The translations under genes and the position numbers were made by a program. Source: an uncultured Elusimicrobia bacterium (lineage in GTDB: Bacteria > Elusimicrobiota > Elusimicrobia > UBA1565 > UBA9628). From it: 64,000 nucleotides of DNA. Below are positions 1,845-13,121 of this stretch, piece by piece; within the stretch, counting starts at the first letter, position 1, and each line of letters opens with the position of its first letter. The stretch spans positions 75,487 to 139,486 of the forward strand of contig CAIKVT010000058.1 of assembly GCA_903830945.1 (NCBI GenBank). The letters run 5' to 3'. The notes under the pieces are model-generated. The model had not been told where the DNA came from. It saw only the letters and a list, made by a program, of their open reading frames with translations, and did not search any database.

Positions 1845-2782
1845 GCCAGGGGCACGCGCAAGGGCATGCTCACGGTCATGCGCACCACGGCCATCAAGGG
1901 CTCTCCGCGGTCGAGTCTCTGACCTGGGCGCTGGGCCTCACCGCGATCTTTTTTGTAGTCGAGCTTGTGGGCGGATGGTGGACCGGCAGCCTGGCGTTGA
2001 TCTCCGACGCTCTGCATATGGGCTTCGATCTGACCGCCTTGGGGTTGGGTCTCTTCGCGGCCCGGATGGCGCGGCGTCCGGCCGACACAAAGCGGACCTT
2101 CGGCTACCAGCGCGTGGAGGTTCTGGTCGCTTTGCTCAACGGCGTCACCTTGATCCTCATCACCGGCATCATCCTGCGCGAGGCTTACGTGCGGTTCTTC
2201 GCGCCGCAGGATATCAAGGCCAAGGAGATGGTGGTCATTGCGATCATCGGCCTTTTGAGCAACCTGGCTGCCGGAGCTGTGCTCTATCGTTCTAGCCGCG
2301 AGAACATCAACATGAGGGGGGCCTTTTTGCACGTGCTCTCCGACGCTCTGGGCTCCTTGGGCGCGGTCATCGCCGGGGTCATCGTCATGGAGACGGGCTG
2401 GCGTCAGGCGGACCCCGTGGTGAGCCTGCTGATCTGCCTTGGCATCGTCGTGACTTCTTATTGGCTGGTGCGCGATTCGGTGCATATCCTGCTTGAAGGC
2501 ACCCCGTCGCACCTGGAGCTGGCGCAGATCCGCGACGCGCTGAGCGCCTTGCCCGGGGTTCGCTCGGTCCATGATCTGCATCTTTGGTCCGTCACCCGGG
2601 GCACGGAGTCCATGAGCGGGCACGTGGTGGTGAGATCCGACGAGCATACCGCCGCCACCGTGCGCGTCGGGGCCAAGCTGCTTAAGGAGCGCTTCGGCAT
2701 CACGCACGTGACCTTGCAGGTGGAGACTTCGGGGCAACCCGAGTGTGAGGACACGGTCCCGCCGCCGACCGAACCGGAATGA
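1841..2782 (+). CDS. cation diffusion facilitator (CzcD/ZitB-like) metal efflux transporter
   Basis: His-rich N-terminus (HAQGHAHGHAHHGH), CDF TM signature (SDALHMGFD, LHVLSDALGS) and C-terminal cytoplasmic domain. ATGA overlap with the rlmB stop. Confidence 0.85.
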   Translation: MSQGHAQGHAHGHAHHGHQGLSAVESLTWALGLTAIFFVVELVGGWWTGSLALISDALHMGFDLTALGLGLFAARMARRPADTKRTFGYQRVEVLVALLNGVTLILITGIILREAYVRFFAPQDIKAKEMVVIAIIGLLSNLAAGAVLYRSSRENINMRGAFLHVLSDALGSLGAVIAGVIVMETGWRQADPVVSLLICLGIVVTSYWLVRDSVHILLEGTPSHLELAQIRDALSALPGVRSVHDLHLWSVTRGTESMSGHVVVRSDEHTAATVRVGAKLLKERFGITHVTLQVETSGQPECEDTVPPPTEPE

Positions 2783-3417
2783 AGCGAGAGCCTGGCGCGG
2801 CTCTGCTCCTGCTCAACGGGGATGTCTCTGATCCCGCCTTGGTGAGGCGGCTGGCGCGGCGATGCGCTTTGCTGATCTGCGCGGATGGGGGGGCGCGCCA
2901 TGCCGTCCGCCTGGGGCTGCATCCGGACGCGGTCGTGGGCGACATGGATTCGGTACCCAGGCCTTTGCCGCGGTCTTGGCGCGGGACTTCTTTTTTATGC
3001 GACTTTGATGAGGATTCCTCCGATTTCGAGAAGGCCCTGGCCTTCGTCGCGCGCACGGGCTGCTCACGGCTTTATGTGGCGGGGATTATGGGCGGACGGC
3101 TCGACCATGCTTTGGTCAACCTGGCCTTGGCCCGGGCTTGGGGCTGCCGGCGCAGCCTGGTGATGGTAGATTGGGGGCTGGCTGCGATTTTGGGCCCGGG
3201 GCGCTACCGGCTGGGACTTAAGAGGGGGGAACTGCTATCGCTCTTGGCCGCCACGCAGCGGGCCAAGCTGTCCGTCAGCGGTGTGCGCTATCCTCTGCGG
3301 CGAGCCGTCCTGGTTCCTGGAGGCCGGGGTTTGAGCAATGTGGCCCGGGGTGCGGTCTCGTTGACCGTGCATGCGGGCCGGGTCTGGGCCATGGCGCCGC
3401 GCGGTTTTTCCCTGTAG
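2779..3417 (+). CDS. thiN: thiamine pyrophosphokinase
   Basis: Conserved TPK motifs (LICADGGA, GDMDS) and C-terminal thiamine-binding region. ATGA overlap with the upstream stop. Confidence 0.7.
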   Translation: MKREPGAALLLLNGDVSDPALVRRLARRCALLICADGGARHAVRLGLHPDAVVGDMDSVPRPLPRSWRGTSFLCDFDEDSSDFEKALAFVARTGCSRLYVAGIMGGRLDHALVNLALARAWGCRRSLVMVDWGLAAILGPGRYRLGLKRGELLSLLAATQRAKLSVSGVRYPLRRAVLVPGGRGLSNVARGAVSLTVHAGRVWAMAPRGFSL

Positions 3418-3493: not shown

Positions 3494-3524
3494 AATTGGA
3501 TATGCCAATTTGGCATATCCAATT
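3494..3524. promoter_or_regulatory. perfect 15-bp inverted repeat with 1-nt spacer (AATTGGATATGCCAA-T-TTGGCATATCCAATT), candidate operator for a dimeric DNA-binding protein
   Basis: Read directly. Arms at 3494-3508 and 3510-3524 are exact reverse complements. Sits in the non-coding gap at the left edge of the putative island, upstream of the HTH gene. Confidence 0.5.
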
Positions 3525-3570
3525 CCCAAACCGCCGTGCGCGAGTTCATTGCTGAAGACCGCGGCCTGAC

Positions 3571-3650
3571 CTACGCTGGCCAGATGGTCCAAGGCCTCGC
3601 GCAGCCCCGCGTAGCGGGGCTGCAGGCCCTCCTTGGCAATTTTGACAGCG
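3571..3650. repeat. decayed duplicate of the 3' end of the P-loop gene (left boundary repeat of the putative island)
   Basis: 3571-3608 matches 11061-11098 at 35 of 38 nt. Minus-strand translation of 3571-3650 (AVKIAKEGLQPRYAGLREALDHLAS) parallels the true C-terminus of the 11050..12024 gene (AVKAVHEGLREALDHLAG). Confidence 0.6.
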
Positions 3651-3668
3651 CTGTAAATTTATGGTCTT

Positions 3669-3881
3669 ATGGTGAGCACTATGAGCGCTAGGATGATTTC
3701 TACCGAAGAAGTGCTGACTACACCCCAAGTCTGCGGCCTGCTGAAGATCACTCGGCAGACCCTTTACACGTGGATGGAGCAGGGGAGAATCAAGCCCTGG
3801 ATGAAGGCGGGGGGAGCGTCATGGCTCTTCATACGCGACGAGATTATGCAGGCCAAGAATTCGAAATATCAGCGGGCTTGA
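3669..3881 (+). CDS. small HTH DNA-binding protein, AlpA/excisionase-like (HTH_17 type)
   Basis: 70 aa. TTPQVCGLLKITRQTLYTWMEQGRI resembles phage AlpA/Xis-type helix-turn-helix. Start uncertain (3669 or 3681). Confidence 0.6.
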   Translation: MVSTMSARMISTEEVLTTPQVCGLLKITRQTLYTWMEQGRIKPWMKAGGASWLFIRDEIMQAKNSKYQRA

Positions 3882-3916
3882 TATGGCACGAGGCAAGGGC
3901 GCTGCGGCGCAGGACA

Positions 3917-4957
3917 ATGGCCAAGATCCCTGAAGTCCACTTAGAGACCTGGAAGAGCCTTTACGCTGAGGCTCAGCGCTTCTCGCAGTCAAAGCCCTGG
4001 CAGCGCATCGATGAATCTCTCTTCTTCGCTGTTCAAGGCCCAGCCACCGGCCAGATGGGCTACGCCTGCATCCTCGGCTCCTTGGGAGAATTCCTCGCCC
4101 TCTCCGTCTATCGCGGCGCGGAAGGTTTCGGCGCATATCAAGCCATGCTCCTCGACGAGCCCGCGCTCGACGAGGAGTCCGCGTTCAAGCAAGACTGCCT
4201 CATGGCCCAGTTCACGGACAGCAAGTACGTGGAGACAGCCGACCGCAAGGTCATCCGCGCCTTGGGCCTGAAGTTCGAAGGCCACAACGCCTGGCCGCTC
4301 TTCCGCAGCTACCGCCCCGGCTATTTCCCCTGGCACCTGGATCAGCAGGAAGCCGCATTCCTGACCCTCGCATTGCGCTGCGCGTGCGATTGGGTCGAAA
4401 AGCTCTCTTCCAGCACACTCAACTCCGCCGAAGCCCCCGGGCAGATATTCACTTACCTGCCCAAGGCCGGAGGATCTCCGGAACTGTCCGACTACGAGAA
4501 CGCCTGGACGCAGCCGCCCGCTGAAGTCCCGCAGCAGCCGGCAGTGTTGGACCCCGCCCGGCTCGCCAGGCTCCAGGCCAAGCCGCTCAAGAAAGGCGGA
4601 GTCTGGGAAGCGGAAGTCTTCTACCTGCCGATCACGATCGCAGACCAGGACCGGCCCTATCACGCGCGCTTGGTCCTGCTGGTGGACCAGGACTCCGGCT
4701 TCATCCTCCCGGGGGGAGTCATGCCTCCGGGAAAGACCGCGGCCCAGCTCCTGGCGGATGCGGTATTGGGCGCCGTCGAAGAGGTCGGCTGCCTGCCCGA
4801 AGAGATACGGCTGCGCGACAGATCCGTCTTGCCGGCCCTGCAAGCGGCAGGCCAGGCGCTCGGCGTTCACGTGAAGATAGGCCGCTTCCGTTCGCTTCCG
4901 CAGGCCAAGAAGTCCCTGGTGAAAAGATTCGCCAGCCAGGGACGAGGAAACTACTGA
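3917..4957 (+). CDS. hypothetical protein (346 aa), no recognisable domain
   Basis: Long ORF with coding-like composition. Start set at MAKIPEVH (ATG 3917) because the longer track ORF overlaps the HTH gene. No motif recognised by eye. Confidence 0.55.
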   Translation: MAKIPEVHLETWKSLYAEAQRFSQSKPWQRIDESLFFAVQGPATGQMGYACILGSLGEFLALSVYRGAEGFGAYQAMLLDEPALDEESAFKQDCLMAQFTDSKYVETADRKVIRALGLKFEGHNAWPLFRSYRPGYFPWHLDQQEAAFLTLALRCACDWVEKLSSSTLNSAEAPGQIFTYLPKAGGSPELSDYENAWTQPPAEVPQQPAVLDPARLARLQAKPLKKGGVWEAEVFYLPITIADQDRPYHARLVLLVDQDSGFILPGGVMPPGKTAAQLLADAVLGAVEEVGCLPEEIRLRDRSVLPALQAAGQALGVHVKIGRFRSLPQAKKSLVKRFASQGRGNY

Positions 4958-4966
4958 TCTAGGAGA

Positions 4967-5380
4967 ATGAAAATGGCATTAGACCTAAGCAGCCTGCGCA
5001 AAGCCGCCGCCTCTCTCCAGCATGCCCTCAAAATCGCCGCCGCCCAGGCCGGCATGGACAGCGAAGACGTCATCCGCGCCGGCGTCATTAAGAACTTCGA
5101 GTTCACTTACGAGCTCTGCTGGAAGTTCATCAAGCGCTGGCTCGAAAAGAACTCTCCCGAAGCCGACCTCGAAGGCCTAACGCGCAAGGAACTTTTCCGC
5201 ATGGCCGCCGAAAGACACCTCATCAAGGACGTCGAGCCCTGGTTCAGGTACCACGCCGCCCGCAACGAAACCTCCCACACCTACGACTCGGCCAAGGCCG
5301 AAATGATCTTCGCAGCGGCCAAGCTCTTCGCGGCCGACGCCCAGGCGCTGCTCAAGGAACTCGAGAAGCGCAATGATTAA
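4967..5380 (+). CDS. hepT: HepT-like (HI0074 family) nucleotidyltransferase substrate-binding protein, toxin of a type VII TA pair
   Basis: 137 aa. Helical HI0074-type sequence with the NETSHTY region (Rx4HxY-like). AGGAG RBS. The second ATG at 4973 may be the true start. Confidence 0.8.
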   Translation: MKMALDLSSLRKAAASLQHALKIAAAQAGMDSEDVIRAGVIKNFEFTYELCWKFIKRWLEKNSPEADLEGLTRKELFRMAAERHLIKDVEPWFRYHAARNETSHTYDSAKAEMIFAAAKLFAADAQALLKELEKRND

Positions 5381-5684
5381 GGCCACTCCCGCCCAACTGC
5401 GCGCCATCAAGGATATCCTCGCCCGGCATCTGTGCGGGGCCGAGGTCCGGGCCTTCGGCTCCCGCGTCAGCGGCAAGCCCAAGCCATACTCCGACCTAGA
5501 TCTCGCCGTGTTCGCGCTCCAAAAGCTCGACGCGACCAGCCTCGAAGAAACGCGCGAGGCCTTTGCGGAGTCCGACCTTCCCTTCCGGGTCGATATCCTC
5601 GATTGGAACGCGATCTCCGAGGAATTCAAGAAGGTCATCGAAGCCGGCTACGAAGTCCTCCAGAAGTCCGGAGCTTGTAGGTAG
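5373..5684 (+). CDS. mntA: MNT-type minimal nucleotidyltransferase (HI0073 family), antitoxin partner of HepT
   Basis: 103 aa. GSRVSGKPKPYSDLDLAV nucleotidyltransferase motif (GS...DxD). 8-bp overlap (ATGATTAA) with hepT. Confidence 0.8.
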   Translation: MIKATPAQLRAIKDILARHLCGAEVRAFGSRVSGKPKPYSDLDLAVFALQKLDATSLEETREAFAESDLPFRVDILDWNAISEEFKKVIEAGYEVLQKSGACR

Positions 5685-5710
5685 GATAAGCCCGCTTCGG
5701 GCTCGCCGCC
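5673..5710. repeat. 38-bp direct repeat, copy 1 (GCTTGtAGGTAGGATAAGCCCGCTTCGGGCTCGCCGCC); overlaps the last 4 codons and stop of the MNT gene
   Basis: 37 of 38 identical to 9757-9794. Contains the small hairpin GCCCG-CTT-CGGGC. Both copies read ...ACR-stop in frame. Confidence 0.7.
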
Positions 5711-5925
5711 CTTGCCGAAGCCGCCCAGGATCTTCAATTCCTCAATGCGCACAGGCTCCCTCTTCCGCTGCCAGGGGCCCGCAGTCGGTAGGATACAATA
5801 GAAAACCGCCTTCGAGGCGGCCGAGTTCCGGCTCTAGGCAACGGCCAGCCTAGGCGGCTGGTAGGTCATCGTCGCCGGGAGGATTGGTAGACAGATTGGG
5901 TGAAGACGCGACGCTGGGGAGGAGC

Positions 5926-6258
5926 ATGAAACAACTGGATTCATATGAGCAGCTTCGAAAGGCAAAGAGAAAATATCTTTATTTATTATGCGTATTCTTC
6001 ATCACAAATCTCCTATCGCGCATCCTGCCTTGGGAGAAATCGCCGATATTTTCCGGTTTGGTCGGGTTGGTTTTCTTATGCCTGGGGGTATGGTATTTAG
6101 TCTGCACCTACCGCTTCACTAGAGCTTTAGGATACGGCGTCGGCAGCGCAATAGGCTGGTCGGTCCTCTCGATAATCCCCATGACTTATGTCTTCGTCAT
6201 GCTGGCCCTCGTTTGGAAATACAAGAAAATGACGAGTCCTCAGGACAGGACAAGATGA
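5926..6258 (+). CDS. small membrane protein (about 110 aa, 2-3 TM helices), lower GC than flanks
   Basis: Hydrophobic stretches LYLLCVFFITNLL and GLVGLVFLCLGVWYLVC, AT-rich codon usage. Start could be 5884 (track) or 5926 (MKQLD, preceded by GGAGGAG). Confidence 0.45.
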   Translation: MKQLDSYEQLRKAKRKYLYLLCVFFITNLLSRILPWEKSPIFSGLVGLVFLCLGVWYLVCTYRFTRALGYGVGSAIGWSVLSIIPMTYVFVMLALVWKYKKMTSPQDRTR

Positions 6259-6604
6259 ATGCCCTCCGAAGTCGGCCGAGCCCGCCTTCTGCAATTATAA
6301 ATCTGGGTCCCTGGCGGGACAAAGTTAGAACCTGGCTGACCCTGGAAGACACGTCCTGCTTCTCAGCCCGGGTAGATGCCCTCGTCCAGAGGAATCCCTC
6401 CCTGAGCACGATGTTAGCAAATCGGTAAGCGCCGCTGATGGGGTGCCCTGAGGGGGGGCCAAGTACCAGACATTTTTCCCCAGCTCCGTCCGCGCCCTCG
6501 CTCCCTCCGCCCTCGCCGTTGCGCCCAGCCCCCGCTGATGTCATCCTTGACGCCCCCACGATCCCGACGACACTGGCATCCCCCGTGGCTAAACTGTATC
6601 ATAG

Positions 6605-6635
6605 CGACTGCGGGCACCCTCCGGGTGCCCGCAGT
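6605..6635. other. perfect 14-bp-stem / 3-nt-loop GC-rich hairpin (GACTGCGGGCACCC-TCC-GGGTGCCCGCAGTC) in a 580-bp non-coding stretch
   Basis: Read directly. No U-tract on either strand, so not a canonical intrinsic terminator. 5774-5790 shares CCCGCAGTCGG(T/A)AGG with its right half. Confidence 0.5.
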
Positions 6636-6840
6636 CGGAAGGGGGGAGGTCGGAGGGATGATGCTGGCGAGGCGAGGGGCTCGAAGCGGGGTTATTCTAT
6701 CTACAATCATCCGCCCGCATACTCCAGGCGGAGCATAAGGGCGGAAGGGGGGGACTCCAGTGGCAAAAGCGAAGCGTGGCTATCGGCTCAAAGTGCCGTT
6801 ATCCTTACCTACGTGCAAGAAAGAGCGCAACCTATTGCGA

Positions 6841-7386
6841 TTACTTCCAAGCGGAAAAAAATCCCCAGGCGGCAAGGCTTCCTGACGCAAGCTTGGCAAC
6901 AATCGCGTTGGCGCCCAGAGCATGCACCAGCGCATGATGGAGCAGCCAGGCTGCATAAAACGCGTAGGCGCAAAGCCCAACGGCCGAGAGCCAATGGATG
7001 TTCGCCAATTGCGTCATTCGGACCAACACATAGGCCGGTATCAATAATTGCAAATTCGCGGAAACCCGCATCGCCGTCGGAGCGTCGGTCTTGCCGCCGG
7101 AAACGAAAGCCAGCACCCCGAGGATGCCGGCGCCGGCCAAGACCAGGGTCGCCGAATTGATCGCCGCAAAAAGGAAACCCATCGCGTCTGGCCGCCAATG
7201 ACTCTGCAGCCAGTTGCAGAGATCGAAACCAATCTCACCGGCCGTGTTGTAGACCAGCGATCGCAAGAAGGAATCCGCGTATCCGCCTCCGCGCGGCATG
7301 GCAATAAAATATTTCTTAGGTGATAACAGTGCCGTCTTGGTTTCAATCCAATAATTCCACGGAGACGGCTCATGCACCCAAACCAT
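6841..7386 (-). CDS. integral membrane protein, function unknown
   Basis: 181 aa. Strong RBS (GAGGAGGAGAAATC-ATG). Several hydrophobic helices. Lies in the lower-GC nested segment. Confidence 0.55.
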   Translation of the reverse strand: MVWVHEPSPWNYWIETKTALLSPKKYFIAMPRGGGYADSFLRSLVYNTAGEIGFDLCNWLQSHWRPDAMGFLFAAINSATLVLAGAGILGVLAFVSGGKTDAPTAMRVSANLQLLIPAYVLVRMTQLANIHWLSAVGLCAYAFYAAWLLHHALVHALGANAIVAKLASGSLAAWGFFSAWK

Positions 7387-7398
7387 GATTTCTCCTCC

Positions 7399-8370
7399 TC
7401 AATACGACGCCCATTGTTTATGTTTTGAGTCCACGTGAGTGCAGTCCACAAAAATTGTCCCATAACACGGCGCGCCGGGATCCGAAACATAGCCCCAAAA
7501 GCCCGTATCCTTGACCTTGGCCGGATTCACGCCGCCGCCGGAGCAAACCGCGGCGTCGTAATTGGCAGCCTGAAATCTAAAATTCTGGTGCTCCTTAAGC
7601 AGGGGCTCTACTGGCAACTGAAGTTCGGAAAGCTGCTCCGGATATTTGCCGTTCCTATTCTTATATTGGGACACTGTCAGCCGCATGGTTTTGAGAGACA
7701 TTCTGGTCAAGGCTTCTTGCAACCCAACGTGTCCAGGCCGCACGGTCCAAAAGATTATGGCCAGAGGAAGACACAAGAAGATGGCGCCCAGAAGCTCTCC
7801 CAAAGCCTTTCTTCCGGCGCTAGTCATCGGAAGATAGATAACTCTCGTGCCGACCAGATAATCGTGGAGCGCACGCTTTTGTTTGGTGCAACCCACTAAA
7901 ATGCAGCCGGGGTATAGGCATGTCTGGGCGGCCCAGCGGCCCAGACAGCGGAGGTAAGTCAACGAAGAGCCATCGATGCGGACAATGCGGATGCCGACAA
8001 TCATCTTTCCAATTGTCTGCCCCTGGAAAGTCGCCGGCATCCAAACCCAATCGATCAAGAATATCAGCCAGCTAGCCCATCTAATCCAATGGCTGCTGAA
8101 CGGAACCCCAAACAGAAGAAGAACAGCCATAGGGAAAATCCCAACCAGCGCATCGATAAAATAGGCTCCGGCGCGGACGGCAAAGCCAGCGAGAGATCTG
8201 TCAGCCGTTGCGGCAGCCACGTCAGGAGTGACGGCCGGCTGATCCACCTGATTCAATAATCTGGCATTGCATTTCGTGCAGACCCCGCGGCCTTTGCCGA
8301 GCTCCCTGACCGCGCCGCCGCAATCAGGACAATGGGATAGTTCCGACGCTGCATGACGGGATTTGGCCAT
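7399..8370 (-). CDS. chimeric membrane protein: N-terminal zinc ribbon + RDD-family domain + C-terminal prepilin/pseudopilin-like module
   Basis: CPDCGG...CTKCN zinc ribbon. RDD-like core (RAGAYFIDALV...GQTIGKMIVGIRIV...DYLVGTRVI). C-terminal TM followed by QEALTRMSLKTMRLTVSQYKNRNGKYPEQLSELQ, which resembles the pilin alpha-1 helix and GspG-like NG(R/K)YP motif. Confidence 0.6.
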   Translation of the reverse strand: MAKSRHAASELSHCPDCGGAVRELGKGRGVCTKCNARLLNQVDQPAVTPDVAAATADRSLAGFAVRAGAYFIDALVGIFPMAVLLLFGVPFSSHWIRWASWLIFLIDWVWMPATFQGQTIGKMIVGIRIVRIDGSSLTYLRCLGRWAAQTCLYPGCILVGCTKQKRALHDYLVGTRVIYLPMTSAGRKALGELLGAIFLCLPLAIIFWTVRPGHVGLQEALTRMSLKTMRLTVSQYKNRNGKYPEQLSELQLPVEPLLKEHQNFRFQAANYDAAVCSGGGVNPAKVKDTGFWGYVSDPGAPCYGTIFVDCTHVDSKHKQWASY

Positions 8371-8479
8371 ATTTAAGATTATATTTTATTTTATTTATGC
8401 TCGCGATTAGCGGTCTTTGGGTGCACCCACCCCAGATGGACTTGCGCAATTTAATAATCCTATTATTATCTACTACTCC

Positions 8480-9733
8480 ATGCACAACGAATCCCCAAGC
8501 ACCGAAGGCGCAAACATCCAATCGAACAACTTCCATGTCGCCAGCACTTGGGCGAGAGCGGCCGCCTGGTTTATCGATGGATTCGCCTGCTCTCTATTGC
8601 TCAGTCCATTGCTCGTCAGCCCCATAAAGGCTCTCCTGGCAGGTGATTCCGTGGTGCTCTCTCTCCCGAGGATCCTATCAGGGTGGGCCGTCGTATTCGT
8701 TTATGCAGTCGTTTTCAATAAACACAAGAATGCGACGCCCGGAAAGATGCTGTTCGGCCTCAAGATCATCCCCGTCGCGGCGGACCGGCTGGATCTGTCA
8801 TGGACGCAAGTCGTTCTAAGAAGAGCGACTGAGATGCTGTTGGGCCTGCCATTCTCATTAGCCCCTCAGGCGGTTGCGTTCTTCCGTCCCGATCGCAGGC
8901 AACTGGCAGATCTCGTGGCAGGGACACGCGTGGTTCAGGGATCTTCCAGGGGAAAGGATGCCAAGCCTCGCTGGATATTGGGCTCGCTGTGCATCATCTA
9001 TTTTGGGCTGACAGGCATTTCAAAATTTTTGATGACAGCCAGAAATATAACTCCCGACGGCCTTCGCATAACGCGATCGATGAGAGCACTCACGCCTGCC
9101 TCACGGACCGGGACTTCTTATCACTCTCCGGCTGAGGGGGATCCCACCGTCCCAGGCGTCAGCATCCGTCACAATCTTGACGCAGCCAAAGATATGGGCG
9201 AGGCCGCAGAGCTTTCCCGCAAGGCTTGCGACGCGGGAAGTGGTGAAAGCTGTTTCGATCTTGGCGTCATGTACACAAAAGGTCTCGGGGTGAGCAAAGA
9301 CATGGAGAAAGCCATGGACTTCTATCGCAAGGCCTGCGACATGAAGATCGGTCAAGGTTGTTTTAATCTCGGTGTCAAACACGCGATAGGCCCAGGCACA
9401 CCCGAAGACAGGAGGGAAGCCAGGGAGCTCTTCCTCAAGGCCTGCGATCTCGGGGAGGGCAGAAGCTGTATCAATCTGGGCAACCTGCATGAACAAGGAC
9501 AAGGTGTGCCCAAGGATATCGAAAAAGCATTGGTGTTTTATCGCAAAGCCTGCGATTTAGGGATGGCCGAGGGGTGCGACAAGACAAAACTCCTCAGCGG
9601 CAGACAGACGTCCGGCTTGACCAATAGACCGGACAACAGAGAGAGCAGCACCGACGAGATGAACTGCCCAATGGGGATGAAAGCCGTAGCCACCGGTAGT
9701 GCCTTCCAGCCCTGGAAATGCGTCTCTGAATAA
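8480..9733 (+). CDS. chimeric protein: N-terminal RDD-family membrane domain + C-terminal Sel1-like repeats
   Basis: RDD-like region (WARAAAWFIDG...TPGKMLFGLKIIPV...ADLVAGTRVVQ). At least 4 Sel1-type repeats (KACDAGSGESCFDLGVMYTKGLGVSKDMEKAMDFYRKAC and similar). Divergent from the 7399..8370 gene across an AT-rich promoter region. Start 8480 (ATG) preferred over 8417. Confidence 0.6.
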   Translation: MHNESPSTEGANIQSNNFHVASTWARAAAWFIDGFACSLLLSPLLVSPIKALLAGDSVVLSLPRILSGWAVVFVYAVVFNKHKNATPGKMLFGLKIIPVAADRLDLSWTQVVLRRATEMLLGLPFSLAPQAVAFFRPDRRQLADLVAGTRVVQGSSRGKDAKPRWILGSLCIIYFGLTGISKFLMTARNITPDGLRITRSMRALTPASRTGTSYHSPAEGDPTVPGVSIRHNLDAAKDMGEAAELSRKACDAGSGESCFDLGVMYTKGLGVSKDMEKAMDFYRKACDMKIGQGCFNLGVKHAIGPGTPEDRREARELFLKACDLGEGRSCINLGNLHEQGQGVPKDIEKALVFYRKACDLGMAEGCDKTKLLSGRQTSGLTNRPDNRESSTDEMNCPMGMKAVATGSAFQPWKCVSE

Positions 9734-9756
9734 GCCATCCCAATTTTACCCACTTG

Positions 9757-9794
9757 GCTTGCAGGTAGGATAAGCCCGCTTCGGGCTCGCCGCC
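9757..9794. repeat. 38-bp direct repeat, copy 2 (GCTTGcAGGTAGGATAAGCCCGCTTCGGGCTCGCCGCC)
   Basis: 37 of 38 identical to 5673-5710. Lies 23 bp downstream of the RDD-Sel1 gene stop. Confidence 0.7.
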
Positions 9795-9796
9795 TT

Positions 9797-9897
9797 CCCC
9801 TCAACGGCTGCGCCCAGTCGCATGGTATCGCAAAGCCGCCAATCAAGGCAATGCCGAAGCGAAAAACAAAATCGCCGAATTAGAGCGCACCAAATAG
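9797..9897 (+). pseudogene. orphan C-terminal fragment of a Sel1-repeat protein (…PVAWYRKAANQGNAEAKNKIAELERTK-stop), no start codon
   Basis: In-frame translation after repeat copy 2 gives a canonical Sel1 C-terminal repeat. An upstream in-frame TAG lies inside the repeat. Followed by the hairpin GGGTTG-GGCT-CAACCC. Confidence 0.4.
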
Positions 9898-10187
9898 GAC
9901 ACCACTTCCGGGGTTGGGCTCAACCCGAGTCATTTCTGCAGGCTCTTGAGAAAGGCCATCAACCCTGGCCGGTTATGCCAAGAGTGCGCTCTTCCTAAAT
10001 CGTGGACTTCGCAGGAATTTGGGGCCTTAGCTTTCGTCTCGAGGTCTACCCGGCGTAAATGTTTATCGTATCGAGGGAGACAGCCCGAGCCAAGCGCGAA
10101 TTGTATTTATATCGACACGATTGAGAAAAACTCGATCTGAAGCGGCGCGGCCCGCGATACTTGCCCTGCCGCTATTTCAGCGCACCC

Positions 10188-11102
10188 CTACTTGCAGTCT
10201 TCCGGACAGTTGCACTTGTTCTCGAACTTCTCGTCGCAGCCCCCATCGCCGCAGGCCAGGCATATCCCGGCGTAGCCGCCGATCGGCTGACCGCAGGCGG
10301 CCGCCACTGTCCTCTCGACAAGGCCCGCGCAGCATTGCGGGATGGTGTTATACCCCGGGCCGTTCGGCACGGGGGCTTCGCCGAGCTTCTTGCAGTTGGA
10401 GGGGGCCGAGAGGGCGCGCTTCCGGGCGCTCCAGGACTCGAGGACGCGGAATCCGGACTTGAAATCATTCAAGCCCTCGCGGCTCGGAGCCGGTGCAGGC
10501 GCCGGGCCCGCGCGCGGAGCGCTTACGAGCGCCAGGTACGTCGTCGCGTCATGGTCGAAGAGGGCCATGACGATGCCGTCGTAGTCGACCAGGCCCATCG
10601 GCTGTTTGAGGAGCCACGGGGTCCTGGCGAACTGCCGGCCCCAGGACGCGATGTCCTTGTCGTCGCCGAGTTTCTTCGCCAGGCAAGAGCCAGGGCTGCC
10701 CGATTTTAAATCAAGGACCGCGTAGGGCTTGCCCGCGATGAAGGCCCAGGTCTGAAATCGCGAGGCGCCCTTAAGGAGTGCTTTCAGCCCCGCCGGGTCC
10801 TGCGCGGAGAGACGTCTGAACTCATCATCCTGCAGGTGATGTGTGGGCATCGGCACACCTAAGGAGATGTCTCCTTCATCGAGCGAGAGCCTGTCCCGTC
10901 TTGCCCAATCGACGATGCCGGGGCGCATCTTCTCATAGCACTTGCGGGCTTCCTGGGTCGGCGTCGCCGCTGACACGCGCAGCGGCAGTCCGAGCAGGAG
11001 CGCCAAGCCGCAGGTCAGGGCAGCCAAGGCGATGCCTCGAAGCCGCAGCTTAGCGCCTCGCCACGCCGGCCAGATGGTCCAAAGCCTCGCGCAGCCCCTC
11101 AT
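10188..11102 (-). CDS. secreted protein with Cys-rich C-terminus (hypothetical)
   Basis: Signal peptide (RLRGIALAALTCGLALLLGLPLRVSAA). Last 60 aa contain 11 Cys (CCAGL...CGQ...CLACGDGGCDEKFENKCNCPEDCK). The track start at 11102 overlaps the upstream gene by 52 nt. The true start is probably an internal CTG/TTG near 11047 after a GAGG. Confidence 0.5.
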   Translation of the reverse strand: MRGCARLWTIWPAWRGAKLRLRGIALAALTCGLALLLGLPLRVSAATPTQEARKCYEKMRPGIVDWARRDRLSLDEGDISLGVPMPTHHLQDDEFRRLSAQDPAGLKALLKGASRFQTWAFIAGKPYAVLDLKSGSPGSCLAKKLGDDKDIASWGRQFARTPWLLKQPMGLVDYDGIVMALFDHDATTYLALVSAPRAGPAPAPAPSREGLNDFKSGFRVLESWSARKRALSAPSNCKKLGEAPVPNGPGYNTIPQCCAGLVERTVAAACGQPIGGYAGICLACGDGGCDEKFENKCNCPEDCK

Positions 11103-12024
11103 GCACGGCCTTGACCGCCGCCGGCTTCCAGGAGCTCTGGGCCTCGCGCAGGAATGACGTCTTGTCCACCCGGTTGTCGAAGCGCGCCACCGGGAGGTGA
11201 TAGGTCTTGCCGTGCGCCTTGACGGTGACGGTCCCGGGCTGCTCCGAATTCTTGAGCAGCCACTCCATGTCGTCCTGACCGTAGTCGTTGAGCATGACCT
11301 CGATGGGCACGCCGTGGTGTAGGATCGACCCTGGGTCCTTCGGGTTGCTGCGGGCTTGGTTCTTGCGGCGCGATTCCTCGGGAGTCACCCAGATGTAGAG
11401 GATGGCGGCCGTTTCGAGTAGCTTGGGCGAGAGCCGGCCCAGAGAATATCGGTAGCCGAATGGCTCGGCCAGGGGCTGCTGGGCGTTGAGCGGGCCGCCC
11501 CGGGCGAATTCGATGACTAAAGTCTTGCTATCGAAAGTGTCGGGATAGCTCTCCTGCTTCTCCTTGATCATCTTGCTGGCTTCTGTCTCCAGGGAATCAG
11601 CCAGCTTTATCCTGTGGGATTTATCGAGTTGTCCCAGCCGCGCCGGGGCGCCGACTTTGACTGAAGCGCGGTCGAAGCGGTCCAAGAGGTCCAAGGTCGC
11701 GGATTTTGGATTGAGGAATCTCTTGCGCAGCAGGTCCTCGTGGTCCTCATTGATCAGCTCGATCAGTGTGCCCCAATCCAGGGCATTGCGGAAGGGATGC
11801 TCCGGGGATTGGAAGAACACACGTTCATGGCCCATGCTCACCAGTTCGTCGTCGACGCGCCGCATCATGTGCACGTAAGGGAAATCGTCGAGCTGCACGC
11901 TGTTGCCCATGTGGAAGTCCTGGCGCCGCAAGTCCGCGGGCATCAGGTCCAGATAACGACGCACCTCGGATTTTCCCGAGGCGGGCAGGGCGAGCAGCAG
12001 GACGGTGTCGAGGACCTTGTTCAT
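11050..12024 (-). CDS. P-loop NTPase / kinase-like protein (324 aa), function unknown
   Basis: Start ATG 12024 (MNKVLDTV). Walker-A-like LLLALPASGKSE. The track ORF extends to 12468, but that N-terminal 148 aa is antisense of the upstream gene. ATGA-coupled to the 12021..13121 gene. Confidence 0.6.
   Translation of the reverse strand: MNKVLDTVLLLALPASGKSEVRRYLDLMPADLRRQDFHMGNSVQLDDFPYVHMMRRVDDELVSMGHERVFFQSPEHPFRNALDWGTLIELINEDHEDLLRKRFLNPKSATLDLLDRFDRASVKVGAPARLGQLDKSHRIKLADSLETEASKMIKEKQESYPDTFDSKTLVIEFARGGPLNAQQPLAEPFGYRYSLGRLSPKLLETAAILYIWVTPEESRRKNQARSNPKDPGSILHHGVPIEVMLNDYGQDDMEWLLKNSEQPGTVTVKAHGKTYHLPVARFDNRVDKTSFLREAQSSWKPAAVKAVHEGLREALDHLAGVARR
11061..11098. repeat. 38-bp repeat, complete copy at the 3' end of the P-loop gene (partner of 3571-3608)
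   Basis: CCACGCCGGCCAGATGGTCCAAAGCCTCGCGCAGCCCC. On the minus strand it encodes ...HEGLREALDHLAG. Confidence 0.6.
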
Positions 12025-13121
12025 GACTTGACCTCCAGGGGTCGCATTGGGATCTCGTTGGCCTTGGCCAGCTCGAAGACGCGCTTCTTCTCGGCCAGCG
12101 AGAGGAAGCCTACGGCTACCAGGATGAGCGCCAGCGAGCACCAGTCCGCCGGGCTCGGGAACTTGGCGCCGAAGATGAAGAAGGAGAGCAGCGTCGCCGT
12201 GGTGCCGGCTACCAGCGAGGTCAGGCGATTGACCAGGCCGGCGAAGGTGGCCGTGCGGCCTTTGAACATGAAGATGAAGACCGAGAAGAAGGCCACCATG
12301 CCGTAGACAGCGCCCGCGCCGGTGGCGGGAAACCAGCGGGGGTGGATATGTCTCAGGGCGGCGTGGAACTCGAGTACGGGCCGGGCCGAAGACGAGCTGG
12401 TGAATAGGCCGAGCGTGATGAGGGCCATGGCTACGGAGGCCGAGATCTGTTCGATGGAGAAGAACCACTTGTTGTCGAGCGGCGCGCCCTTGGGCCGGGT
12501 GTTCTTGTAGTAGTTCATGATGTAGATGCGCAGCGCGTAGGCGCAGATGTAGCTCGACAGCACGGCCATGGCCGTGCTGTTCTTGAGGAAATCGAAGTCT
12601 TCGCTGCGGGCCAGGAAGACTTGCGTGGCGGCCGCGGCTACGGCGAAGACCACCGCCACATTCTCTTCCCAGTACACCTTTTTATGCAGGATGCCCTGGC
12701 GGATCTGCGCCTCGTCGACCAGGCGGCTGATGACGATGACGCTGGCCCGCATGATGACCATGGCGACCATCACGGACTTGAGCAGCATGTACATCAAGGT
12801 CGTAGTCGGGATGACCACGGCCGTGCACACGCCCGAGGGGATGATGTAGGCGCATTCCGCGGGCAGACGCAGCGGGCCCAGACGCACGAAGCGGTCGGTC
12901 TTGGTGCGGTACCACCCCGCGGCCAGCACCACGATCAGGCAGATGAGCGAGCCGCCCAAGGTGCTCCAGACCAAAAACTCCATGTCCGTCATGGCCGGCG
13001 TCACTATGGCGTAATGGCCTGTGAAGCACTTGGTGGCCACGCCGAAGATGACGTAGAAGAAGTAGTAGGCCAGGCAGAGCTGGACCAGGCGGCCGGTGGA
13101 GCCTTCAGCGGTCTTCCACAT
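12021..13121 (-). CDS. polytopic integral membrane protein (about 10 TM), function unknown
   Basis: 366 aa with many hydrophobic helices. Stop overlaps the P-loop gene start. Start overlaps the fumarase stop (TGATG). Confidence 0.6.
   Translation of the reverse strand: MWKTAEGSTGRLVQLCLAYYFFYVIFGVATKCFTGHYAIVTPAMTDMEFLVWSTLGGSLICLIVVLAAGWYRTKTDRFVRLGPLRLPAECAYIIPSGVCTAVVIPTTTLMYMLLKSVMVAMVIMRASVIVISRLVDEAQIRQGILHKKVYWEENVAVVFAVAAAATQVFLARSEDFDFLKNSTAMAVLSSYICAYALRIYIMNYYKNTRPKGAPLDNKWFFSIEQISASVAMALITLGLFTSSSSARPVLEFHAALRHIHPRWFPATGAGAVYGMVAFFSVFIFMFKGRTATFAGLVNRLTSLVAGTTATLLSFFIFGAKFPSPADWCSLALILVAVGFLSLAEKKRVFELAKANEIPMRPLEVKS

Follow-up and report, generated by a model that had tools for sequence, protein, structure and literature searches.

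A worn genomic island with a duplicated gene end in an insertion hotspot between core genes of an uncultured Elusimicrobia bacterium

Islands inserted by integrases show a known pattern in which the target is regenerated and a fragment of it is displaced (PMC4383910), while cis-mobilisable elements (CIMEs) are relics that keep their attachment (att) sites after the integration genes have been lost (PMC5704250). IMEXs, integrative mobile elements that exploit Xer, integrate at dif by means of the host XerCD (PMC5357621), and many hotspots of horizontal gene transfer (HGT) between core genes are without mobility genes and show recombination at their flanks (Oliveira et al. 2017, PMC5635113). The locus compared with them here is the interval between a P-loop gene and a thiN gene in 64,000 nucleotides of an uncultured Elusimicrobia bacterium (contig CAIKVT010000058.1, positions 75,487 to 139,486). 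This whole 64-kb stretch is called the window; coordinates are window positions throughout unless another locus is named, and those of the features are collected in Table 1. The P-loop/thiN interval is a hypervariable HGT hotspot between core genes, and the segment that fills it in the window is accessory DNA, inserted relative to the relatives. Within the segment lies a second copy of the 3' end of the P-loop gene, and this repeat is a genuine duplication. It is read, tentatively and with a probability of about 0.4, as the scar left by an insertion that an integrase mediated and that has since lost its recombination genes, that is, as a CIME-like relic. As a whole, the region is an ordinary, worn-out genomic island of a known kind.

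Alignment of the two repeat copies gave 34 of 36 identical nucleotides without a gap and 40 of 45 with one gap, and the local alignment score was 63, as against 19.0 +/- 2.8 for shuffled sequence. A 31-nt pattern of the repeat occurred at two sites only in the 64 kb (0 expected by chance). The direct repeat of the P-loop 3' end, 7.5 kb apart, which an earlier note had claimed from the letters of this DNA, thus stands as unique in the window and far above shuffles. The proximal copy falls in the last 4-16 codons of the P-loop gene, which is on the minus strand and whose protein ends in ...AAVKAVHEGLREALDHLAGVARR before the stop. It is native on both flanks, the final GVARR and stop agreeing with the sister lineages, and in the comparison with L180, the closest relative (flanks about 87% identical in nt), homology spans the repeat, these last codons and 12 nt past the stop, to 11038. 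The distal copy reads ...AVKIAKEGLQPRYAGLREALDHLASVGQ... on the minus strand and has a GCC codon, the state of all sister lineages, at the place where the proximal copy has GCT.

Outside the core the two copies part. On each side of the core, 70 nt came no closer to the gene than shuffled sequence did, with p=0.53 for those after it and p=0.75 for those before. The best ungapped match of the upstream 21-mer was 11/21 (p=0.3). Neither an upstream nor a downstream extension of the repeat is thus significant, and neither the claimed length of 40-80 nt nor the claimed protein-level similarity (AVKIAKEGL vs AVKAVHEGL) survived. The nucleotides that follow the distal copy, GCCG(C)GGTCTTC, resemble the native post-stop sequence of L180 (p about 0.05-0.16), which would fit a displaced original gene end; the likeness is only suggestive. 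The inner flank of the distal copy is an inverted copy of the first ~18 nt of the repeat itself. The DNA fold of the resulting hairpin reached -19 kcal/mol (z=-4.76), with 0 of 200 shuffles equally stable, and the structure looks like a fold-back junction.

The true extent of the accessory DNA was given by comparison with L180, in which blastn aligned L180 5-2194 with window 13212-11038 and L180 2909-6341 with window 3404-2. A second relative, L184, puts the limits similarly, at 11051 and 3390. The repeats are therefore not the boundaries of the segment that they had been taken for, because native DNA runs to 11038 and the distal copy sits 168 nt within the lineage-specific DNA, off the junction. 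In the sister lineages, FumA, a membrane gene and the P-loop gene converge on thiN, CDF, SpoU and CysS, and the content of the interval varies. Nothing lies between the P-loop gene and thiN in L005 (P-loop protein 85% aa identical), where the two stops are 6 nt apart (TAG CCGGAT TCA); the check for an empty site proposed in the earlier note was thereby answered. L180 and P0247 (at least 90%) have one Methyltransf_23 gene between P-loop and thiN, of which no remnant was found in the window, and L184 and P0246 (at least 90%) have an ankyrin-like 156-aa protein and BrnT/BrnA. The filling consists of a ferredoxin, a hybrid-cluster protein (hcp) and an 82-aa open reading frame (ORF) in L178 and L090 (85%), and of sulfatase genes in L177 (87%), where thiN is not nearby. 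Five different states of the interval were seen, with the same flanks and different content in close relatives, as defines a hotspot. With sister lineages carrying nothing or different, shorter fillings, the earlier reading of the segment as inserted, accessory DNA is borne out. The identical P-loop protein was found on 9 metagenome contigs, all of which (9/9) carry the same island, and strain L002 is collinear across the whole region at 99.7%; it follows that the island is fixed in the population, old, and no assembly artefact.

The island is a mosaic of at least three pieces of differing composition and origin. It is fixed, worn and unable to move itself, and it is not one element with recognisable ends, so the single 7.5-kb element of the earlier note has to be given up; the gene content described there (helix-turn-helix (HTH) gene, 346-aa protein, HepT/MNT, lower-GC insert, Cys-rich protein) was recovered with Pfam/NCBIfam. 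By its homology to L174, a Joint Genome Institute (JGI) contig, the left module is a collapsed type I restriction-modification (R-M) operon. Window 3638-3912 (78.2% over 275 nt) and 3908-5672 (77.4% over 1785 nt) matched L174 338-608 and 6066-7812 in blastn. The gene order of the intact L174 operon is HTH_17, hsdM, hsdS, AAA_21, DUF4276, DUF5131, DUF7309/DUF6930, HepT, MNT, hsdR. Compared with it, the window lacks the 5.4-kb block from hsdM to DUF5131 (junction at about 3908-3912) as well as hsdR, the homology breaking off at 5672. None of hsdM, hsdS and hsdR, which together make up a type I system, is thus present, and the leader regulator and passenger genes stay intact.

The HTH_17 protein is 74% identical in amino acids to the one that opens the L174 operon, and the promoter DNA is conserved with L174 from 3638, with a TTGACA -35 box at 3642-3647. 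This homology shows the HTH_17 gene to be the leader regulator of the former operon and not an excisionase, and replaces the AlpA/Xis-like identity first given to it. The HepT and MNT proteins are 83% and 81% identical to the pair that precedes hsdR in L174, and their genes, which overlap by 8 nt in the window, form a HepT/MNT type VII toxin-antitoxin (TA) pair.

No gene for mobility was detected, in agreement with the earlier note, which had seen no recombinase or transposase. Integrase, transposase and relaxase domains were absent from every island ORF in Pfam and NCBIfam searches, and six-frame translations of the four non-coding gaps held no recombinase relic in Pfam. A hidden Markov model (HMM) seeded with lambda Int and XerC, applied to the 6810 ORFs of the window and some 165 loci, detected none in the window, its sensitivity being limited; its single match was a XerC-like gene in L071, far from the site. 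P-loop homologs and the repeat core were not found in viral contigs. The features of a DDE transposon or insertion sequence (IS) were likewise lacking, as there are no terminal inverted repeats (by inspection), the repeat is 36 nt long and the one protein with an RNase H fold is a passenger of the R-M operon.

Set beside the described systems, the locus agrees with the HGT hotspots (PMC5635113) in its conserved flanks, lineage-varying cargo, lack of recognisable mobility genes and signs of flank recombination; it differs in that its filling comes with a 36-nt duplication of the end of a flanking gene, which double homologous recombination alone does not yield. With Islander-type islands (PMC4383910) it shares an unoccupied site in a relative (L005) and what may be a regenerated target and a displaced fragment in direct orientation. 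Unlike them it encodes no tyrosine or serine integrase, the putative displaced fragment is without the last 6 codons of the gene, and the putatively regenerated end is indistinguishable from a native one. The likeness to a CIME extends to direct repeats containing the 3' end of a target gene that codes for protein, the absence of integration and transfer genes, decayed mosaic content and stable inheritance. It does not extend to a cognate integrative and conjugative element (ICE) or integrative and mobilisable element (IME), none of which was found at the site, nor to homology with any conjugative or mobilisable element, and the repeats lie off the junctions. Like an IMEX (PMC5357621), the island encodes no recombinase and has direct repeats some 30 bp long; unlike one, it has its repeat in a coding region and no dif-like site of two inverted 11-bp arms with a 6-8-bp spacer at the terminus. 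The GC skew stays positive across the 64 kb with no switch of sign, so the window is not a terminus/dif region. The left module has the L174-type order HTH_17, DUF7309/DUF6930, HepT, MNT at 77-78% nt identity, and is set apart from that operon by the loss of hsdM, hsdS and hsdR.

A scan of about 170 homologous loci for repeated gene ends returned one further case, L047, besides a weak 15-nt case in L033. L047 is a groundwater metagenome-assembled genome (MAG) labelled 'bacterium' (JACQOF010000031), with a P-loop homolog 60% identical in amino acids to that of the window. Its perfect 33-nt direct repeat (10449-10481 and 14001-14033 of L047) covers the last codons, the stop and 5 nt more of this homolog and flanks 3.5 kb with a 984-aa tetratricopeptide repeat (TPR) protein and two TA-like ORFs, and no integrase. 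The L047 repeat starts within 3 nt of the Leu codon at which the window repeat starts, and, counted from the first base of the homologous Leu codon, the well-preserved block stops exactly 32 nt on in both loci. No relative of L047 with an empty site was found.

The order of gene body, intact end, insert, second copy and DNA next to thiN is the architecture of tyrosine-integrase islands, and it is for this that an integrase scar is the favoured reading. Integration at the P-loop 3' end would have regenerated the gene end and displaced the original; the recombination module would later have been lost, leaving a CIME-like relic, the cargo would have been reshuffled by deletions and a further insertion, and the tail of the distal copy would have been corrupted by one later complex mutation. 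The reading is further favoured because the repeat is real and unique, because sister lineages show an empty site and four alternative fillings, because the distal copy keeps the ancestral GCC, and because the L047 repeat starts at the same Leu codon. The earlier note's mechanism of site-specific integration is accordingly plausible but unproven, and an integrase as the maker of the repeat is something we infer. The arrangement fits the scheme of gene body, regenerated end, insert and displaced end, though not cleanly.

Several observations speak against an integrase scar. The 25 nt beyond the proximal repeat are native in character (20/25 nt vs L180, p=0.004), so that the gene end plus 12 nt would have to have been present, in near-perfect imitation, on any such element. 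The idea that the element supplied a replacement 3' end is to that extent not supported, as the present gene end looks native by comparison with L180. The distal copy has 2 mismatches in its 36-nt core and then an abrupt end of similarity, which is not uniform decay; the earlier note had spoken of a displaced original that decays. Its fold-back inner flank suits illegitimate end-joining better than it suits an attP arm, and the repeat core has no dif-like or lox-like dyad symmetry beyond chance (p=0.97 in the window, 0.24 in L047). The sister lineages L178, L180 and L184 have no second gene-end copy, their inserts being repeat-free; the islands of the window and L047 have no gene in common; and neither the roughly 170 loci of the gene family nor the viral contigs held an integrase-bearing element at this site.

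These same details are accounted for almost as well by a recombinase-independent origin, which is nearly as likely as the integrase scar. Foreign DNA would have been captured in the hotspot illegitimately or by one-ended homologous recombination, through unequal sister exchange or through homology-facilitated illegitimate recombination anchored in thiN, either of which leaves two P-loop 3' ends. Since the convergent genes nearly abut (6 nt between the stops in L005), only events that duplicate the end keep the gene intact. A hotspot with many fillings and no mobility genes suits this explanation, as do the proximal copy that is native on both sides, the hairpin that sits right on the distal copy's inner junction, the lack of both recombinase and dyad symmetry, and the mosaic flanks of sister strains (FumA 81% beside 100% in L003, mem366 97% in L002). 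What it must pay for is two illegitimate joints in addition to the later complex mutation in the distal tail, which every model needs. Long duplications around inserts are moreover classically integrase products, and in L047, an independent lineage, the duplication of this gene end begins no more than 3 nt from the same codon, a hint of site specificity. A different view of that coincidence, which is improbable on the whole, takes the P-loop 3' end as the specific target of an unrecognised insertion process that duplicates a defined block starting between the codons for ...EG and L(R/K)EAL.... If true, such a process would bring in cargo of unrelated kinds (defence genes, TA modules and secreted repeat proteins) while encoding no recombinase and would rely on a recombinase in trans or on a host-driven mechanism; the two distant lineages of the window and L047 support it.

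Mobilisation in trans, with the repeats as functional att sites served by a recombinase elsewhere in the genome in the manner of a satellite or IMEX, is likewise unlikely. It would explain two integrase-less islands at the homologous gene position in distant lineages, the perfect repeat of L047 and a distal core conserved at 34/36 between unrelated flanks, and IMEXs show that integrative elements without a recombinase exist (PMC5357621). Yet no variant of the population with an empty site occurs among the nine contigs with the same P-loop protein, dyad symmetry of the dif type and a change of skew sign across the 64 kb are both missing, the lambda Int/XerC seeds, with their limited sensitivity, detect no recombinase in the window, and the repeats lie off the junctions of the lineage-specific DNA. 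It is very unlikely that the 346-aa DUF7309/DUF6930 protein is the missing recombinase, acting with the HTH_17 protein. Its gene lies about 300 nt from the distal repeat, and its AlphaFold model (pLDDT, the model's confidence score, 90.3) has two predicted RNase H-like domains with the fold of a retroviral integrase/transposase core, in which the conserved acidic residues D/E33, D101 and E145 would be placed as in a DDE core. The triad is, on the other hand, only 86-100% conserved, a homolog of 65% aa identity sits mid-operon in the intact type I R-M system of L174, between DUF5131 and HepT, and further homologs, with no repeats at their flanks, lie in R-M operons or stand alone among genes for defence and housekeeping. 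Terminal inverted repeats are missing from the island, and the L047 island has no DUF7309/DUF6930 homolog. The protein is treated here as a passenger of R-M and defence operons and not as the island recombinase. There is just as little to be said for a repeat that is unrelated to the insertion, whether it goes back to a local duplication long ago or is retained for some other role such as antisense pairing of the 5' leader of the HTH_17 operon with the P-loop/Cys-rich mRNA. The sharp boundaries and the position of the distal copy, just upstream of the conserved HTH_17 promoter and on the strand opposite to the P-loop gene, agree with it. Sister lineages have no second copy, however, the distal copy lies upstream of the -35 box and is thus probably not transcribed with the operon, and in L047 the second copy has another orientation relative to its neighbours. 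Causes outside these readings are given a small share, below that of mobilisation in trans.

The locus offers a worked example of a hotspot in the uncultured phylum Elusimicrobia, with turnover of defence and surface genes between abutting convergent core genes, and of the decay of a type I R-M operon until only passenger genes are left. One inference is also limited by it, in that a duplicated gene end beside foreign DNA suggests integrase activity and does not prove it. Of possibly greater value than the island are two side leads: the DUF7309/DUF6930 family, with its predicted integrase-like fold and its place in R-M operons, and the recurrent gene-end duplication in L047.

Table 1. Features of the P-loop/thiN interval and its flanks (window positions)
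Feature	Position	Strand	Evidence or remark
thiN-type thiamine pyrophosphokinase gene	2779..3417	+	Pfam TPK_catalytic; convergent conserved neighbour, synteny
Lineage-specific DNA vs closest relative L180	3405..11037		7.6 kb, true accessory extent
Perfect 31-bp palindrome (15+1+15)	3494..3524		Between thiN and distal repeat
Distal repeat copy	3573..3608	-	34/36, non-coding
Fold-back hairpin	3593..3628		Perfect 10-bp arms 3601-3610 and 3614-3623, plus 5 outer pairs
Type I R-M operon relic	3638..5672	+	blastn to L174
HTH_17 gene	3693..3881	+	Pfam HTH_17 5.8e-12; mad1-like
DUF7309+DUF6930 protein, 346 aa	3917..4957	+	Pfam/NCBIfam
HepT-like (NTase_sub_bind)	4967..5380	+	NTase_sub_bind 4.6e-37, HI0074 family 4.5e-23
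MNT	5373..5684	+	Polbeta/NTP_transf_2 about 1e-9; MntA 6.9e-10, under that model's cut-off
Inner 38-nt repeat copy A	5673..5710	+	Supplies last 4 codons of MNT
Lower-GC block (0.52-0.58)	5673..10187		Composition; RDD/Sel1 membrane genes
Small membrane gene, 124 aa	5884-6258	+	In low-GC block
Inner repeat, diverged inverted copy	6670-6706	inverted	81%
Small membrane gene	6841-7386	-	In low-GC block
RDD gene	7399-8370	-	Pfam
RDD+Sel1 gene	8417-9733	+	Pfam
Inner 38-nt repeat copy C	9757..9794	+	37/38 to copy A
Sel1-repeat protein C-terminal remnant	9769-9897	+	Ends ...VAWYRKAANQGNAEAKNKIAELERTK and stop
Cys-rich secreted protein gene	10188..11027	-	279 aa, 13 Cys, host-like GC 0.68; directly downstream of P-loop gene
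P-loop gene	11050..12024	-	324 aa; target gene with repeated 3' end
Proximal repeat copy	11063..11098	-	Codes (E)GLREALDHLAG(V) inside P-loop gene

The P-loop protein belongs to no Pfam or NCBIfam family and gave nothing significant in a PDB sequence search. Homologs with 55-100% identity were found on >1000 contigs from Elusimicrobia, Myxococcota and Bdellovibrionota, Elusimicrobia MAGs foremost, usually with the 366-aa membrane gene preceding. Together, the 324-aa P-loop protein and the 366-aa membrane protein make a conserved gene pair (11050-13121, minus strand), often with a 4-nt overlap, in these three groups and others; the pair is uncharacterised, the membrane protein being likewise without a Pfam, NCBIfam or PDB sequence match. 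No tRNA was found in the window and no tmRNA at the site, and Rfam gave no match in the first 20 kb of the window.

L180 and L002 both come from sample ERZ27313068, in which sister populations about 87% identical in nucleotides around the locus co-occur; at the same spot in the same samples, the 7.6-kb island is found in one population and a lone methyltransferase gene in the other. In L003 (2-178) the FumA C-terminus is 81% identical next to neighbours at 100%, and in L002 (22-1119) mem366 is 97% identical, the adjoining P-loop gene being at 100%. Either recombination at the flanks of the hotspot or chimeric assembly could account for this mosaicism.

The 15-nt case in L033 (10954-10968 and 12260-12274) is an exact direct match of the very end of its P-loop homolog, with the second copy right behind the one caspase-like (Peptidase_C14) gene that is inserted downstream. 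A short repeat comparable to the others is conceivable, though chance is the more probable cause. A third, decayed gene-end copy beside thiN in the window, as an accretion model predicts, was not significant (p=0.18-0.95), the apparent alignment being carried by thiN itself.

The palindrome is AT-rich, with the arms AATTGGATATGCCAA and TTGGCATATCCAATT around a central T, and is perfect, as the earlier note had it, and unique in the window; its placing just inside the left boundary was mistaken, as it lies on the thiN side, outside the repeat-bounded segment, though still within DNA missing from relatives. L005, L180, L184 and L178 do not have the palindrome. With a single occurrence in the window, it was rejected as a repeated miniature inverted-repeat transposable element (MITE), and it may be an operator.

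In the low-GC block, copy A of the inner 38-nt repeat starts at the exact point where the R-M homology to L174 ends and low GC begins. As low GC runs on past copy C to the end of the block, the inner repeats look like internal repeats of the block rather than its att sites. The repeat holds a GC hairpin (AGCCCG CTT CGGGCT). With a second block (5774-5797 and 6595-6618), copy A and the inverted copy (copy B) make up imperfect inverted repeats of ~125 nt around the 124-aa membrane gene. The Sel1 remnant, a pseudogene fragment, stands directly 3' of copy C and in frame with it. The Cys-rich protein has no Pfam or NCBIfam family and no homolog in about 170 related loci.

For the DUF7309 protein, a PDB sequence search gave nothing significant, and no papers on DUF6930 or DUF7309 were found. 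In L087 (3800-11500), also from Elusimicrobia, homologs stand in tandem cassettes of a 163-aa ORF, PRiA4_ORF3, a variable gene and DUF7309/DUF6930. One cassette has Fic in the variable place, the other Schlafen/AlbA_2, and between the two DUF7309 copies DNA identity is 83%, some 400 nt of non-coding sequence downstream included.

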